Assembly (NCBI GenBank): GCA_028873525.1
Contig: JAGWIM010000001.1
Location: 2,068 to 66,067, forward strand
DNA from: Pseudomonadota bacterium
GTDB taxonomy: Bacteria; Pseudomonadota; Alphaproteobacteria; Rickettsiales; SXRF01
Length of the DNA stretch: 64,000 nucleotides
Direction: 5' to 3'
This document shows, piece by piece, positions 2,537 through 15,940 of the stretch (the first letter of the stretch is position 1; the number at the start of each line of letters is the position of its first letter). The position numbers were made by a program, and so were the translations under genes. The notes beneath the pieces were generated by a model that saw only the letters and a program-made list of their open reading frames with translations, did not search any database and had not been told where the DNA came from.

Positions 2537-3067
2537 GTGATGACGATGAGCCGGCCGCCACATTCCACCAGCCTTGCGGATAATGGCCGCCCGCACCTGA
2601 TGCCTCGTGACAACGCGCTGCGCCGGAAAATCGGCCGGCACGTTTCGCTAGGGCAGATTTTTACGTTGGAAAGAATGCAGGAATGCCAGCAGATGCTGAA
2701 TACTCTCCAGGCCGATTTTCTGAAGGAAATGGAGGATCATCTCGTCATAATCAGCGATTTATACAGGCAAGCCGAGAATGACTCGGCGTCGGCGACATCC
2801 ATGATCCATGCGGCGACCGACGTGGCTTTTATCATCAAAACAAGAATGGAGGCGCTCGGTTTTCCTTTCGGCTTTGCGGTGGCAAAATCATTGTATGAAT
2901 ACATGCAAGCCGCACCTGCTTATAGTTCCGATGCGCTGATGGTTGTCTGTAAGCATGTCGCCGTGCTCAATATCATCATCAAAGAAAAAATCACCGACGG
3001 CGGCGGCCAGATAGGCGAGGAAATGCTGGATAACCTGAAAAAGCTGGTAAGGAAAGTGGGGTCGTAG
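2537..3067 (+). CDS. hypothetical protein, helical, probably co-transcribed with the receiver gene
   Basis: 176-aa ORF abutting the stop of the receiver gene (TGA then GTG/ATG). I recognise no motif. Confidence 0.4.
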   Translation: MMTMSRPPHSTSLADNGRPHLMPRDNALRRKIGRHVSLGQIFTLERMQECQQMLNTLQADFLKEMEDHLVIISDLYRQAENDSASATSMIHAATDVAFIIKTRMEALGFPFGFAVAKSLYEYMQAAPAYSSDALMVVCKHVAVLNIIIKEKITDGGGQIGEEMLDNLKKLVRKVGS

Positions 3068-3074
3068 CGCCGCA

Positions 3075-4406
3075 TCAGCTTCCCAGCCGGTACACCGTCT
3101 CACCCCCCACCACCGTTCGTATCGCTCTGCCCCTGACCGGCCAGTCGTCGAAGGGCGAGTTAAGTGACTTACTTACAAATTGTTTGGGATCAATCGTCCA
3201 TTTTACATCGAGGTCGATCAGCGTCAGGTCGGCGCGCGCGCCTTTCTTCAAGCGCCCGGCGGGGACGTGGATGATGTCGGCGGGTTTATAGGTCATGGCG
3301 GCGATGACATCGCGCAGCGGCATGATTTTCTTGTGATAAAGGGTGAGCGACAGCGGCAACATGGTTTCGAGGCCCACGATGCCAAACGACGCCGAAGCCA
3401 TCGGCACGCGCTTGCTTTCCTGGTCGTGCGGCGCGTGGTCGGTGGCAATCGCATCAATCGTGCCATCCTTCAGTCCCTCAATAATCGCCAGCCGGTCGCG
3501 CTCGGAGCGCAGCGGCGGGTTCATTTTGGAGAAGGTGCGGTATTCGCCCACCGCTTCGTCGGTCAGCGTGAAATGGTGCGGCGCAGCTTCGGCGGTGACG
3601 CGCAGGCCTTTTTTCTTGGCGCGGCGCACGGCGTCGATGGCTTCGGCGGTGGAAATATGCAGCACATGATATTGCCCGCCGGTAAGCCCGGCGAGGATAA
3701 TATCGCGCTCAACCATCACCGCTTCGGCGGCGTTTGGAATGCCCGCCAGCCCCAGATGCGCTGAAATCTTCCCCTCGTTCATGCAGCCGCCGCAGGAGAG
3801 GTTCAGATCCTCCGCGTGCTGCGCCACCGGCAGGCCGAATTGTTTGGAATAGGCCAGCGCTTTTCGCATCACCCCCGCATTCATCACCGGCAAGCCATCG
3901 TCGGTAAAGCCCACGGCGCCCGCCTCGGCGAGCAGGCCCATCTCGGTCAACTCCTCGCCTTTTTGCCCCTCGGTGATGGCGGCATAGGCACGGACATTGA
4001 CATAGGCTGATTCCAGCGCGCGTTTTTGCATGAAGGACATGACTGCCACGTCGTCGATGACAGGACGCGTGTTAGGCATACAGGCGACCGTCGTCACTCC
4101 GCCCGCCGCCGCAGATTTGCTGCCGGTGGCGATGGTTTCCTTGTATTCCTGCCCCGGCTCGCGGAAATGCACCTGGATGTCGAGCAGCCCCGGCGTCAGC
4201 AGATGACCTTTGCAGTCGATGATCTCCGCGCCGCGCGGCAATTTATCTTTCGTCAGATGTGGCCCGAAATCAGCGATTTTATCGCCAATCGTCAGCAGCC
4301 CGCCCTTTTTATCCAGCCCCGATTCCGGGTCCATCAGCCGCGCATTGACATACGCCACCTTGCGGGTATTTTTGTGGGTGGGAAGGGTGAAGGTTTGTTT
4401 CAGCAT
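3075..4406 (-). CDS. pyrC: dihydroorotase
   Basis: 443-aa ORF. Amidohydrolase metal ligands are visible (DIQVHFREPG, HVLHIST, ATDHAPH). Length matches the PyrC class found next to pyrB. Confidence 0.9.
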   Translation of the reverse strand: MLKQTFTLPTHKNTRKVAYVNARLMDPESGLDKKGGLLTIGDKIADFGPHLTKDKLPRGAEIIDCKGHLLTPGLLDIQVHFREPGQEYKETIATGSKSAAAGGVTTVACMPNTRPVIDDVAVMSFMQKRALESAYVNVRAYAAITEGQKGEELTEMGLLAEAGAVGFTDDGLPVMNAGVMRKALAYSKQFGLPVAQHAEDLNLSCGGCMNEGKISAHLGLAGIPNAAEAVMVERDIILAGLTGGQYHVLHISTAEAIDAVRRAKKKGLRVTAEAAPHHFTLTDEAVGEYRTFSKMNPPLRSERDRLAIIEGLKDGTIDAIATDHAPHDQESKRVPMASASFGIVGLETMLPLSLTLYHKKIMPLRDVIAAMTYKPADIIHVPAGRLKKGARADLTLIDLDVKWTIDPKQFVSKSLNSPFDDWPVRGRAIRTVVGGETVYRLGS

Positions 4407-4532
4407 TTATATTCCTGAATTGAACTTTACCAGCTTTTTCCAATCAATCGCGCCTGATTGGAAATAAAATTTCTCGAGCGTTTCCTTAGTAAATCGATTG
4501 ATAAGATTAGAATATAATCGCGCTTCACTCAT
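4407..4532 (-). CDS. candidate 41-aa small ORF exactly filling the pyrB-pyrC gap
   Basis: Hand translation gives [41 protein letters not shown]. Its ATG overlaps the pyrB TGA (ATGA) and its TAA abuts the pyrC ATG (TAAATG). The segment is AT-rich. It is below the ORF-track length cut-off. Confidence 0.3.
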
Positions 4533-9715: not shown

Positions 9716-10033
9716 ATGCTCCGCTTCTTCAAATTTTTTGCCGCGCTCCTGATTGCCGTTGCCTTTGCCGGGTTCGCCGCTGCCAACCGCGGCATGGTTT
9801 CCCTGCGTTTTTTTCCCCTGCCCTACGCCGTGGATATGCCGCAGTTTCTGCTGGCGCTGCTGTGCTTTGCGCTGGGCGCGGCAGCAGGAAGGCTGGCGCT
9901 GGGACTCAGCCTGCACCGCGCCAGGCGGCTGATCAGGCTGGAGCGGCAGCGTGTGGAAGCGCTGGAGCATGAATTGGCGCTGTTGCGCCAGAAGAAACAG
10001 GCCGCCATGCCCGCGATACCGGCGCAATCATGA
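9716..10033 (+). CDS. LapA-domain (DUF1049-like) inner-membrane protein
   Basis: 105 aa, two TM helices and then a coiled basic tail (RLERQRVEALEHELALLRQ). It occupies the ihfB-lapA-trpF position seen in alphaproteobacteria. Confidence 0.6.
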   Translation: MLRFFKFFAALLIAVAFAGFAAANRGMVSLRFFPLPYAVDMPQFLLALLCFALGAAAGRLALGLSLHRARRLIRLERQRVEALEHELALLRQKKQAAMPAIPAQS

Positions 10034-10719
10034 ACGTGAAAGTAAAAATCTGCGGACTGAATGACGAAGCGGCGGTGCAGGCCGCTATCAAGGCCGGCGC
10101 CGACTTTGCCGGCTTTGTTTTTTATCCCGGTTCGCCGCGCCATATCGCTTTGAAGCGCGCGGCGGAATTGAACGCGCTTCTGCCGCCGCGCATCAAAAGC
10201 GCATCGGTGCTGGTCGATCCCGATGACGCGCTGCTGGCGGAAGTGCGGTCGATACTAAAGCCGGACTATGTGCAATTACATGGCAACGAAACGCCACGGC
10301 GCCTGCGGGAGATAAAAAAAACATTCCCCAACATAAAAATCATTAAGGCGATTTCCGTGCACGGCGGCGACGACGTGGCGCAGGCCGGAATGTTTTATGA
10401 TTGTGCGGATATGCTGATGTTTGATGCGGCTAGCTTTCCCGCAGAGCGCAGCGATGCGTTGGAAAGCTGCCGTCCCCGCGAAGGCGGGGACCCAGTTCTT
10501 CCCGGCGGCAACGGCCTTGCATTCGACTGGGTTCTCCTTGCCAGGCGCGAATTGCCGTTGCCATGGTTCCTTTCCGGCGGGTTGACTCCGGAAAATGTCG
10601 CCGATGCCATCCGCATCAGCGGCGCCGGAATGATTGATGTCTCCTCTGGCGTCGAGCGTGAGCGCGGTGTAAAAGATGCGAGCCTGATTGAAGCGTTTAT
10701 CAAAGCGGCAAAAACATGA
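10030..10719 (+). CDS. trpF: phosphoribosylanthranilate isomerase
   Basis: KICGL...[10 protein letters not shown]...QLHG...FDW...SGGLTPENV...DVSSGVE. Carries an extra segment of about 14 aa encoded by a palindromic element at 10472-10491. Confidence 0.85.
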
Positions 10720-11918
10720 AGATAAGCAACACGCAGCCTGATTCCCACGGCCATTTCGGCACTTACGGCGGCCGGTATGTCGCCGAAACGCTGATGCCGC
10801 TCGTCCTCGAAGTCGAGCGCGCATATAACGCGGCGAAAAACGATCCGGAATTCAAGCGCGGGCTGGATTATTATTTTGAGCATTACATCGGCCGCCCGTC
10901 GCCGCTGTATTTTGCCGAGCGGCTGACGAAACACTGCGGCGGCGCCAGGATTTATTTCAAGCGCGACGAGTTGAACCACACCGGCGCGCATAAAATTAAC
11001 AATTGCATCGGCCAGGGGTTGCTGGCCAGACGCCTCGGCAAAAAGCGCATCATCGCCGAAACCGGCGCCGGGCAGCACGGCGTCGCCACCGCCACGGTCT
11101 GCGCGCTGTTCGGGTTGGAATGCATTATTTATATGGGCGCGAAAGACATCGAACGGCAGGCGCCGAACGTGTTTCGCATGAAGCTGCTCGGCGCAAAGGT
11201 CGTGCCGGTCACGTCCGGCAGCAAGACGCTGAAAGACGCGATGAACGAGGCGTTGCGCGACTGGGTGAGCAACGTCGCCACCACCTATTACCTCATCGGC
11301 ACCGCCGCCGGGCCGCACCCCTATCCGGAAATGGTGCGTGATTTCCAGTCCGCCATTGGCAGGGAAACGCGCGAGCAATTGCATAAGGCCGAGGGCAGGC
11401 TGCCCGATACGCTGGTCGCCTGCATCGGCGGCGGCAGCAACGCCATCGGTCTGTTCCACCCGTTCCTGAGCGAGCCGGAGGTGAAGATGATCGGCGTCGA
11501 GGCGGCAGGGCGCGGGCTGGATTCCGGCCAACATGCGGCGTCAATCGCGCGCGGCCAGCCCGGCGTGCTGCATGGCGCGCGCAGCTATCTGTTGCAGACC
11601 GACGATGGCCAGGTGCAGGACGCGCATTCAATTTCCGCCGGGCTGGATTATCCCGGCATCGGCCCGGAACATTCCTGGCTGCATGACACCGGCCGCGTGG
11701 AGTATGTCTCCGCCACCGATGACGAAGCGCTGGCGGCGTTCCAGACCGTTTCAAAACTGGAGGGAATTATTCCGGCGCTGGAACCGGCGCACGCGCTGGC
11801 GCATGTCTTAAAATTCGCGCCGCCGCTTCCCAAAAATCATTTGCTGGTGGTAAACGTCTGCGGCCGCGGCGATAAGGATATTTTCACCGTGGCCAAAGCG
11901 CTGGGGGTGGAGTTGTGA
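10716..11918 (+). CDS. trpB: tryptophan synthase beta chain
   Basis: 400-aa ORF with the PLP-lysine block (HTGAHKINN) and GGGSNAIG. 4-nt overlap with trpF. Confidence 0.95.
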
Positions 11919-12298
11919 TAAAAGATTTTACAAAATGGCATAAAATAAAAACCCTGCTTGAGGGCAAGCAGAAACTTCCTATCTATCAAACCCGCGAAAT
12001 ATGGTGGTGCAGCCTAGGCGCAAATATCGGTCATGAACAGGATGGAAAAAGCGGATTCTATCTTCGGCCAGTGCTTGTCATACGCAAATTCAATCCGCAT
12101 ATCTTCTTTGGGGTGCCACTTACCACGCGGATAAAAGAAAATCCTTATTATCATCGCATTCACTTCAGAGGAAAAGAACAGTGCGTTATGCTCTCGCAAT
12201 TGCGATTGTGGGACAGCAAACGCCTTTCCCAGAAAATGGGAAAATTGCCGGAAGACCAATTTGAGGAAATAAGAAATGCTTTGAAAGGCTTAATGTAA
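11915..12298 (+). CDS. PemK/MazF-like toxin-fold protein, no obvious antitoxin
   Basis: 127 aa. [33 protein letters not shown] and [14 protein letters not shown] resemble the MazF/PemK SH3-like core. The GTG start overlaps the trpB TGA (GTGA). Clearly AT-richer than trpB and trpA. Confidence 0.6.
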
Positions 12299-12299
12299 T

Positions 12300-12319
12300 C
12301 AGCCCCCTTTCGGGGGCTG
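12300..12319 (+). terminator. GC-rich hairpin after the MazF-like ORF
   Basis: CAGCCCCC-TTTC-GGGGGCTG, a perfect 8-bp stem starting 2 nt after the stop. No U-tract follows, so terminator function is uncertain. Confidence 0.4.
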
Positions 12320-12399
12320 CATATGCCTAACGGCAATTTGTGGTTTCATTGTAAGGTAGTTTATGCTGAAAGTCAAATTATTCCAGAAGGAGTAAGTTT

Positions 12400-12567
12400 A
12401 TGAAATTACCACTGCTTACCTATATCCTCTATTTGCTTGGCTTAGGTGTTTTTATGTCGACTATGAAGGAAGGTAACTCGACTGTACAAATGTATGAGAT
12501 GTTGTTTGCTTTCGGCTGTTGGCATACTGGTCGTTTAATCAAAAGGCGTTCTAAAGCAATGAAATAG
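12400..12567 (+). CDS. candidate 55-aa small membrane protein
   Basis: AAGGAG lies 7 nt upstream of the ATG. Translation [21 protein letters not shown]...[17 protein letters not shown] has one hydrophobic helix and a basic tail. AT-rich. Ends 8 nt before the trpA ATG. Confidence 0.3.
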
Positions 12568-12574
12568 CTTAACC

Positions 12575-13375
12575 ATGACCTCCCGCATCGAAAAAACCTT
12601 CGCCAGACTTCGCGCTGAAAAACGCGCGGCGCTGATACCCTTCGTCATGGGTTACGACCCGGATGCGAAAACGTCGGCGGCGGTGCTGGACGCGCTGCCG
12701 GAAGCGGGCGCGGACATCGTTGAAATCGGGATGCCGTTTTCCGATCCCGTAGCCGACGGGCCGGTGATCCAGGCGGCGGGGCTGCGTGCGCTGAAAGCGG
12801 GAGCAACGGTTTCCGGTATCCTGGAACTCGTGCGCGAGTTTCGCAAGAAACATGCAAATACGCCGGTGATTCTGATGGGCTATTTCAATCCGGTCTATCG
12901 CTATGGCTGCGAAAGATTCTGCCAAGATGCAGTAGCGGCTGGGGCGGACGGCATCATTCTGGTGGATTTGCCGCCGGAAGAAGAACAGGAAATGCGGCCG
13001 CATCTTGAGGCGACGGGACTCAAGCTCATCCGCCTCGTCGCTCCAACCAGCGGCGACGACCGCTTGCCGCTGCTGGCCAAATCCGCCAGCGGATTTATCT
13101 ATTATATTTCCATCACCGGCATCACCGGCGCGCAAGCAGCCGATGCGCTGGAACTAAAAACGAAGGTTGACCATCTGCGGAAATTCACCGCGCTGCCGGT
13201 GGCCGTCGGCTTCGGTATCAAAACACCGCGGCAGGCGGCGCAGGCGGCCAGTTGCGCCGATGCGGTGGTGGTGGGCAGCGCGCTGGTGGATGCCGTCGCG
13301 CATCAGAAAGACCGCGCCCACGCCGTCAAGGCGGCCAGCGCTTTTGTCAGGGAACTGGCGGAAGCGCTTGGATAA
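12575..13375 (+). CDS. trpA: tryptophan synthase alpha chain
   Basis: 266-aa ORF with [21 protein letters not shown] and GFGI blocks. Confidence 0.9.
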
Positions 13376-13386
13376 TTCTCAGGCGA

Positions 13387-15940
<2,554 letters not shown>

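Follow-up and report, generated by a model that had tools for sequence, protein, structure and literature searches.

A MazF/PemK-family toxin gene between trpB and trpA and its predicted convergent structured small RNA: a candidate two-gene toxin-antitoxin module

The window analysed here is a stretch of 64,000 nucleotides from a Pseudomonadota bacterium of the order Rickettsiales (GenBank assembly GCA_028873525.1, contig JAGWIM010000001.1, positions 2,068 to 66,067), in which the tryptophan synthase genes trpB and trpA are held apart by an insert carrying a gene for a MazF/PemK-like toxin. MazF toxins are textbook type II toxins, defined by their protein antidote. An earlier note on this DNA, made from the letters alone, described the toxin gene as 'solitary' and suggested that a small open reading frame (ORF) downstream of it might be an unconventional partner. 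The question raised by this locus is what stands in the place of the antidote. Our results point to an RNA. A conserved, convergent small-RNA gene with a predicted promoter of its own accompanies this toxin subfamily nearly everywhere, and the description 'solitary' has to be given up. We judge it rather probable that both genes form a module of about 470 bp, in which a MazF/PemK-fold toxin, expressed via host genes, would be countered by a convergent structured small RNA (sRNA) acting as antitoxin instead of MazE. The features at the centre of this proposal are:

11915-12298, plus strand: 127-aa MazF/PemK endoribonuclease toxin (predicted activity); Pfam PF02452, sequence hits in the Protein Data Bank (PDB), AlphaFold2 (AF2) model with Foldseek search, conserved R51 and T70/T71
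12341 to 12292, minus strand: predicted small RNA; best hit of covariance model R1 (60.6 bits, E=6e-7), covariation and strand test
12319-12300, minus strand: hairpin H1, CAGCCCCC-TTTC-GGGGGCTG on the plus strand; 8 bp with a GAAA tetraloop on the minus strand; 7/7 modelled pairs covary (75 sequences)
12335-12324, minus strand: hairpin H2, UGCC-GUUA-GGCA; 4/4 pairs covary, 100% of cells paired
12376 to 12348, minus strand: predicted sigma-70-type promoter; -35 TTGACT (12376-12371), 17-nt spacer, -10 TACAAT (12353-12348); promoter scan, 10/12 matches

The membership of the 127-aa ORF in the MazF/PemK family was observed at several levels. Its residues 27-124 scored 56.8 bits with the PF02452 (PemK_toxin) profile, whose cut-off is 23.1 (E=3e-15), a weak match to NCBIfam MazF was recorded, and its sequence matches in PDB included the MazF proteins of S. 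aureus and B. subtilis. The AF2 model, computed with 96 homologs in the alignment (pLDDT 84.6, pTM 0.74), displayed the MazF beta-barrel flanked by one helix on the N-terminal side (residues 5-17) and one on the C-terminal side, and the top 50 Foldseek matches in PDB were all MazF/EndoA/MoxT chains (probability 1.00, TM up to 0.80). The MazF/PemK-like fold proposed by the earlier note is thereby borne out, including the structural similarity on which that note had staked its claim. R51 (RPVLV) was invariant and T70/T71 (PLTT) were at least 90% conserved in family alignments; the motifs aligned with them in S. aureus MazF were RPVV for R51 and AITG for T70, and we take both residues to correspond to the catalytic Arg/Thr pair of the B. 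subtilis and E. coli MazF structures (R25/T48 in the former). All homologs among the 120 matches listed carried PF02452, and the subfamily distinguished itself by its length, about 127 aa throughout, and by a conserved helical extension at the N-terminus (KDFxxWxxLK, about 25 aa). Profile and model thus both speak for a genuine MazF/PemK-fold toxin, presumably a sequence-specific single-strand endoribonuclease. The annotation of the protein is not new, since an identical one is already deposited at NCBI as 'PemK/MazF family toxin' from a Pseudomonadota metagenome-assembled genome (MAG). The toxin also displayed an invariant tandem Trp (TGG TGG, W30 W31; 12002-12007) and an invariant W8 (11936-11938). 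On a trp operon transcript these tandem codons resemble those of a leader peptide, and toxin synthesis might drop when tryptophan is scarce; being family-wide, the Trp codons are not an adaptation to the trp operon.

Relatives of the toxin were sought in one genome per species, which yielded 583, and the best 80 of these were examined as loci. Their hosts were Rickettsiales-labelled and other alphaproteobacterial MAGs, Patescibacteria/Saccharibacteria, Verrucomicrobiota, Saprospiraceae and Trueperaceae, and two toxin copies often occurred in one MAG. Alignment of the DNA 3' of the toxin stop across homologs uncovered a shared module in nearly all loci. Its order on the plus strand was a GC-rich, variable H1, a 4-bp H2 (with GCC/GGC, GGC/GCC, GGG/CCC and GAC/GTC among the stem variants), AATTTGT, a TA...T box and, about 17 nt further, GTCAA. 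Read on the minus strand, this becomes TTGAC(A/T), 16-18 nt, TAnnnT, 6 nt, ACAAAU, H2 and H1, that is, a candidate promoter followed by a candidate structured RNA. The perfect GC hairpin at 12300-12319 reported by the earlier note is indeed present, 1 nt after the toxin TAA; it is not a separate item, as that note had it, and appears as part of the RNA gene.

Both hairpins were predicted by RNAalifold from a seed of 32 sequences, with compensatory double changes in 11/11 pairs. Covariance model R1 was built from this seed and run on the window and 82 loci (665 kb), and its 75 hits were aligned. Standard pairs filled 96.2% of the cells in these 75 sequences, against 73% in column shuffles and 45-59% with slid partners, percentages which are inflated by the fitting of the alignment to the model. 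Double-change cells numbered 187, and none of 500 shuffles attained the covariation score. The functional strand would be the minus strand, because on it G-U cells exceeded A-C cells (48 vs 11), tetraloops read GNRA or UUCG, and Patescibacteria copies displayed a U-run directly after H1, as in a standard intrinsic terminator. A sigma-70-type promoter was likewise predicted in fixed register in 74 loci anchored on the predicted RNA. The -10 hexamer lay at -12 to -7 (T59 A55. A49. T62) and TTGACA at -35 to -30, position -1 was a pyrimidine and +1 the first A of ACAAAU; a promoter score of at least 9/12 was reached in 67/74 loci vs ~3/74 in shuffled controls. The unpaired 5' ACAAAU was nearly invariant (69-74/75 per position), and a C following H2 and a G following H1 were also conserved as unpaired bases. 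Since the toxin stop preceded H1 in 51/70 loci, the RNA body lies mostly in the non-coding 3' untranslated region (UTR) and its conservation is no coding artefact; in the window, the predicted RNA tail runs over the toxin stop codon (12296-12298). No match to Rfam 15 was recorded at 12292-12376 on either strand, even at E<=10, and a known RNA family was rejected on this ground.

Some further sequence signals were recorded around the RNA. A YUNR loop motif in H2 was considered; less than half of the loops fitted it and no claim is made. The toxin ORF displayed a 9-nt perfect complementarity between 12242-12250 (AAATTGCCG) and the 3' UTR at 12331-12339. This stretch of the ORF, which repeats the sRNA 5' motif (repeat I9, 12242-12250), was not conserved, did not differ from a codon-shuffled control and was discarded. 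On the minus strand, a terminator-like hairpin with a T-run (TTCTGCTTGCCCTCAAGCAGGG TTTTTATTTT) lies at 11973-11942, antisense in the 5' coding region of the toxin, where it could end a long antisense transcript in this genome; such a transcript was rejected, anything comparable being found in only 9/86 loci. In Patescibacteria loci such as L043, L056, L064, L066 and L067 (toxin ~4001-4432), the toxin displayed a C-terminal extension through H1 and H2, its stop being reached as late as the H2 loop or past the start of the RNA, so that the sRNA is fully antisense to coding sequence. In these loci H2 often carried a UUCG loop and a clear U-run followed H1.

A clear relationship was observed between the occurrence of the predicted RNA and that of the toxin. 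R1 gave exactly one hit in the window (12292-12341, minus strand), with the top score of all, and in ~70/82 loci the hit was convergent and adjoined the toxin 3' end. The few surplus hits lay beside second or partial toxin copies, and several loci without a hit displayed a visible candidate phyla radiation (CPR) variant of H2 (GGC-UUCG-GCC) with the same promoter. Independent toxin loci kept outside model building were matched at the expected place in 6/6 cases (50-61 bits). Toxin-free trpBA loci gave no R1 hit, nor did 1.08 Mb of viral DNA pre-selected by exact match to 15 specified bases of the RNA 5' end. Phage-borne mimics of the sRNA were considered and rejected, the 15-nt motif having occurred 125 times in viral contigs, close to chance expectation, and no occurrence having passed the covariance model. 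Extra sRNA gene copies occurred at L005:4456-4505, L017:3911-3961, L052:3566-3615 and 3652-3703, and L067:8148-8197, either following the first copy in tandem, or lying upstream of the toxin, or adjoining a second, partial toxin copy on the other strand, which suggests that entire modules have been duplicated or have decayed.

A protein partner was sought by clustering all ORFs of 30-130 aa that lie up to 450 nt from the toxin. No conserved protein antitoxin was found at this distance in the 80 homolog loci, no search having been made elsewhere in the genomes. Nothing clustered except alternate-frame shadows of the conserved genes on either side, e.g. trpB and trpA, and ORFs antisense to or neighbouring the toxin in the window had no Pfam match; a protein antitoxin hidden in another frame was rejected on both grounds. 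The earlier note was right that no MazE-like gene precedes the toxin. TrpB is encoded directly upstream with no other ORF between, and the antitoxin in another frame which that note feared to have missed did not appear. The adjacent, co-transcribed gene for MazE/PemI/AbrB, a ribbon-helix-helix protein or a similar protein antitoxin, by which type II systems are recognised, is thus lacking here.

There remains the small ORF downstream of the toxin:

12400-12567, plus strand: 55-codon orphan ORF; AAGGAG at 12388-12393, 6 nt before the ATG; outside the conserved module

The earlier note had read it as a 55-codon ORF with a strong AAGGAG ribosome-binding site (RBS), one transmembrane helix and a basic tail, and this description agrees with the sequence by eye. 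The same note had left two roles to it, partner of the toxin or unrelated neighbour. As an unconventional antitoxin or partner, the 55-aa membrane protein could invoke its strong RBS and its place inside the same low-GC insert as the toxin. Yet it has no counterpart in the other toxin loci: tblastn gave no match in any fetched locus, eight other trp-embedded ones included, exhaustive HMMER searches of 1.84 billion representative proteins returned only the protein itself and two spurious matches inside long proteins, and no Pfam or NCBIfam family was matched. Moreover, it lies beyond the module boundary, which ends at the sRNA -35 box. As a partner at family level it is refuted, with hardly any probability left to that role, and the second role, that of an orphan unrelated to the toxin, is the one that stands. 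Its stop lies 7 nt upstream of the trpA ATG. Since it combines a strong RBS with this short distance, it might conceivably deliver ribosomes to trpA, a suggestion we make with low confidence. Another small ORF, of 57 aa and with a C-terminal hydrophobic segment, was noticed between trpB and the toxin at L171:2824-2997, with a 4-nt overlap at the trpB stop and a gap of 3 nt to the toxin start; this ORF displayed no significant Pfam match and no similarity to the 55-aa ORF of the window.

How the RNA could act as an antitoxin may be pictured as follows. The first gene would encode the endoribonuclease toxin and usually has no space for a promoter of its own, so that expression would come by read-through or translational coupling from a co-oriented housekeeping gene. 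The second, on the opposite strand, would yield a structured RNA of ~50-60 nt from its own strong sigma-70 promoter, with ACAAAU followed by two hairpins. In a type I-like mode, this RNA would pair with the 3' end of whatever transcript reads through the toxin gene, to which its complementarity is perfect, and trigger decay of the duplex, as for RatA/txpA. In a type III-like mode, it would bind the toxin protein as decoy or substrate, as for ToxI/ToxN. Both are candidate modes, and the conservation pattern favours protein contact over pure antisense, because the unpaired RNA bases are near-invariant from Alphaproteobacteria to Patescibacteria among toxins diverged to 40-68% identity.

Several points weigh against an antitoxin RNA. 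Its expression, ends and abundance are predictions. In alphaproteobacterial copies, that of the window included, H1 is followed by a tail (AUUACAUU) that makes a poor U-tract, and the 3' end is uncertain as a result. The overlap with the 3' end of the toxin ORF amounts to a few nucleotides in most loci. Pairing of the sRNA with the ribosome-binding region of the toxin was rejected, no conserved complementarity being found (mean z -0.2), and the commonest type I mode is thereby ruled out. To these add the inflated pairing percentages and the limits of the protein search, both given above.

These points feed another explanation, in which the toxin is solitary or neutralised by a distant protein, and the 3' element is a terminator or insulator with an antisense promoter that dampens read-through or toxin expression by transcriptional interference, its RNA product being functionless. 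Convergent promoters can work by collision alone, and a short ORF overlap without pairing to the translation start is compatible with that. MazF-mx, a solitary MazF whose antitoxin is reported to be the protein MrpC, acting in trans, sets a precedent (PMC4803016). Interference alone, however, leaves the invariant unpaired 5' ACAAAU, the covarying H2 and the GNRA/UUCG loops unexplained, features that each speak for selection on the RNA itself, and it has to account for an element which both CPR genomes and Alphaproteobacteria have kept, the register between promoter and RNA being fixed. We regard it as rather unlikely, and return to the toxin with its sRNA antitoxin as the preferred reading.

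The insertion of this putative module into the trp operon could be followed by comparison with related genomes. The features of the window concerned are:

10030-10719, plus strand: trpF, upstream of trpB
10716-11918, plus strand: trpB (tryptophan synthase beta); ORF list, Pfam PALP, 79-88% identity to TrpB of related loci
11915-11918, plus strand: GTGA stop/start overlap, the trpB TGA being shared with the toxin GTG; junction comparison
12575-13375, plus strand: trpA (tryptophan synthase alpha); Pfam Trp_syntA (E=5e-94), junction comparison
12377-12574, no strand assigned: extra low-GC spacer; this genome only, outside the conserved module

The earlier note had seen trpB and trpA split by about 650 AT-rich nt; the spacer measures 656 nt, its GC content is 0.40-0.45 vs ~0.60 in the flanks, and its features lie where that note had placed them. 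Third-position GC (GC3) is 0.45 in the 127-aa ORF vs 0.78 in trpB and 0.70 in trpA. The overlap of the toxin GTG with the trpB stop, also claimed there, is the GTGA at 11915-11918. The trpB/trpA junction was compared in 16 loci, toxin-free trpBA relatives having been obtained with TrpA as query in a metagenome scan. In the closest of these (L084-L086, L088-L090 and L092), with TrpA 68-73% and TrpB 81-88% identical to those of the window, the junction is intact and reads ...GAGTT-GTGA-GC..., the trpB stop being fused to the trpA start. This provides the uninterrupted, overlapping trpBA that the earlier note had proposed to look for in relatives. In insert-bearing genomes, GTGA (or ATGA) fuses the trpB stop to the toxin start and trpA restarts at ATGACC. 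In the window, the toxin GTG in the trpB stop would thus have taken the place of the original trpB/trpA stop-start overlap, and the new trpA start ATGACC has no obvious Shine-Dalgarno sequence. Since the plus strand displays no T-run after H1 in the window, read-through into trpA is plausible; transcription towards trpA must cross the predicted convergent promoter. Downstream, 11 nt separate the trpA end from the stop codon of convergent gyrB (13387-15840, minus strand), which leaves hardly any space for terminators between two essential genes.

The occupation of this junction is recurrent. The order trpB-toxin-sRNA-trpA was also found in L007, L008, L009, L094, L170, L171 and L173, and toxin-sRNA-trpA with a different upstream sequence in L091; the wider sppA-HU-trpF-trpB synteny of the window is common to L170 and L171. 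The shortest case, L173, leaves only 4 nt from the sRNA -35 box to the trpA ATG, hence the module size of ~470 bp. From the sRNA promoter to trpA, the other trp-embedded loci have 4 to ~90 nt, and the spacer 12377-12574 of the window had no similar counterpart in the fetched loci or elsewhere in the window. On a neighbour-joining (NJ) tree of TrpB+TrpA, insert-bearing and insert-free genomes were interleaved, and on the toxin tree the trp-embedded copies were scattered among copies from other contexts; both are NJ trees of short proteins, with low resolution for old pairs. Pairwise toxin identity was unrelated to TrpA/TrpB identity (Spearman 0.07), as illustrated by L094 vs L171 (toxin 78%, TrpA 54%) and L009 vs L091 (TrpA 78%, toxin 48%). 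A single ancestral insertion followed by co-divergence is disfavoured by this correlation and by the interleaved, if poorly resolved, host tree, and we favour repeated gain, replacement or loss at the trpB/trpA junction. As to homologous co-transfer with flanks, adjacent trpB/trpA segments showed no raised identity, in pairs that are all too diverged for this to weigh against it. Another close relative, L087, carries at this junction a different insert of ~1.2 kb (L087:1076-2310) with one ORF of ~390 aa, whose N-terminus looks J-domain-like by eye; its trpA begins with ATGACCACACG, as is also the case in L009 and L091, where the toxin is present. Inserts of various kinds may tend to settle at this junction, or this one may have displaced the toxin module in L087.

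How the module would reach such junctions bears on a further explanation, that the hairpins are DNA-level signals for cassette insertion (a folded single-strand site like integron attC, or a transposon end) and the promoter is incidental. No recombinase, integrase or transposase was found near the module, yet the same junction was entered where toxins do not co-diverge with their hosts; the strand-asymmetric tolerance of G-T also fits a folded single DNA strand. Such signals would nevertheless not call for a -35/-10 register that is fixed, with the start on the first conserved base, in 67/74 loci, nor for the U-run after H1 on the same strand in CPR copies. The hairpins moreover lie inside the module and not at its ends, and the insert boundaries displayed no terminal inverted or direct repeats and no target-site duplication beyond the RTGA common to old and new starts. 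We hold this explanation to be very unlikely, and the hairpins remain, in our preferred reading, parts of an antitoxin RNA.

Outside the trp operon the module displayed a comparable position. A co-oriented upstream ORF was present within 120 nt in 45 loci, all diverse housekeeping genes: mnmA four times, uvrB twice, and glyA, rpoB, alaS, pheS, clpP, uppP, coaX, purE, rluA, hom and others once each. The gap between upstream gene and toxin was -4 to 40 nt in 26/45 loci. As this is too short for a separate promoter, the toxin would rely on the host gene for transcription and sometimes for translation, and its coupling to trpB is, judged by these gaps, one instance of a general habit of settling behind housekeeping genes. 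The idea of the earlier note that trp expression sets the toxin dose is plausible because of the GTGA overlap; it is, however, one case of that habit. In four Rickettsiales-like MAGs (L010, L011, L013 and L014; ~2743-4486) the toxin lies 29-34 nt downstream of mnmA, a second recurrent host junction, and H1 is unusually long there, with a ~13-bp stem and a ~28-nt loop.

This position invites the view that the pair has been domesticated, a MazF-like RNase which processes the sRNA, or is guided or regulated by it, serving in housekeeping or regulatory RNA cleavage. Near-obligate linkage and conserved RNA sequence would suit such a role, as would the reduced genomes (Rickettsiales-like, Patescibacteria), the place behind housekeeping genes, the rarity in viral contigs (6 loci) and the lack of a match for the toxin or the 55-aa ORF in PADLOC-DB 2.0 at E<=0.01. 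Against this, the module is patchy in close relatives and occurs in several copies per genome, the GC content of the toxin gene is 14-20 points under that of its trp neighbours (four loci measured), toxin divergence is uncoupled from the host, and nonsense knock-outs recur, all marks of a mobile, dispensable and costly element. Domestication thus appears unlikely to us. The knock-outs are five independent single-nonsense alleles in otherwise conserved toxin ORFs (L023, L031, L038, L042 and L054; toxin ~4001-4384), and a high-scoring sRNA gene was kept in 4/5 of these loci. They offer an indirect hint of toxin activity and would fit a gene that is costly when unchecked. The stop of L042 is a TGA at the invariant Trp-8 position and could mean recoding of UGA as Trp in that MAG, not inactivation.

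Taken further, the proposal is that of a new toxin-antitoxin (TA) class, in which a MazF RNase is paired with a single-copy, convergent, structured sRNA antitoxin, with a type I-like layout and possibly type III-like sequestration. It would be widespread from Alphaproteobacteria to Patescibacteria and would spread without a mobility gene via 3' ends and stop-start junctions of essential operons, trpB/trpA being a recurrent landing site; lodged in this way, the toxin could not be silenced by the host without silencing the host gene. To this broader claim we give slightly less than an even chance. The RNA family, its near-obligate pairing with this MazF subfamily and the recurrent capture of trpB/trpA appear undescribed: in the open-access literature searched, no MazF/PemK toxin paired with a convergent small RNA was found, only reviews of type I, II and III systems.

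If the proposal is true, a broad MazF subfamily with a dedicated sRNA would blur the line between TA types I, II and III, and many toxins annotated as 'orphan' would not be orphans, notably in Patescibacteria and Rickettsiales-like genomes, of which little RNA biology is known. To the RNA families it would add a candidate one, 50 nt long, marked by an invariant 5' hexamer and a pair of hairpins. The locus would further illustrate how a selfish or defensive element of no more than ~470 bp can turn translational coupling within an essential biosynthetic operon to its own use. The takeover of the trpB/trpA stop-start overlap requires that trpA be expressed anew downstream of a convergent promoter, which bears on the TrpA:TrpB stoichiometry.

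Among known systems, the type II pairs MazEF, PemIK and Kid-Kis have in common with the present one the toxin fold and family (PF02452) and the conserved catalytic Arg/Thr. They differ in that here no adjacent MazE/PemI-type gene was seen in ~90 loci, and the N-terminal helix of ~25 aa, the usual lack of a promoter and a convergent sRNA in the antitoxin's place set the subfamily apart. MazF-mx of Myxococcus xanthus is likewise a MazF homolog without adjacent mazE (PMC4803016, PMC2701414); its reported neutraliser is the distant transcription factor MrpC (PMC4803016), and it represents a single lineage for which a linked RNA gene is not described, in contrast to the widespread mobile module proposed here.

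The layout is closest to the type I systems txpA/RatA, bsrG/SR4 and par RNAI/RNAII, whose antitoxin RNAs are convergent and overlap in 3' (PMC4147584). As in these, the sRNA would be cis-encoded and convergent and would overlap the toxin transcript at its 3' end; in par both transcripts contain the same GC hairpin, and in txpA/RatA complementarity to the translation start is lacking, both as here (PMC4147584). A small RNA complementary to the toxin mRNA, as expected of type I, is accordingly predicted from the convergent gene overlapping the toxin 3' end/3' UTR. The toxin, on the other hand, is not the small hydrophobic one of type I (SymE and RalR being exceptions). Those of the convergent systems are membrane peptides below 60 aa, whereas the present one is a 127-aa soluble MazF-fold RNase, the overlap is short here, and pure cis-antisense action would not need unpaired RNA conserved across phyla. 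SymE/SymR and RalR/RalA do associate an enzyme toxin (RNase or DNase) with sRNA control, yet the overlap of SymR is with the 5' end of symE, its RBS included, and RalA works in trans via Hfq, unlike the situation here (PMC4147584, PMC4041452). The fold of SymE is MazE/AbrB-like and not that of MazF, and both systems are narrowly distributed.

In the type III systems ToxIN, CptIN and AbiQ, an endoribonuclease fold related to MazF/Kid is neutralised by a structured RNA, as would be the case here (PMC5086642). Their antitoxin RNAs are tandem repeats located upstream on the same strand, with a terminator before the toxin (PMC5086642). No ToxI-like tandem repeats were found at the module, and an antitoxin of this kind was rejected for want of an array. 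The present RNA would be single-copy, downstream and convergent, with its own promoter, and its toxin is a true PF02452 member and not of the ToxN/AbiQ kind.

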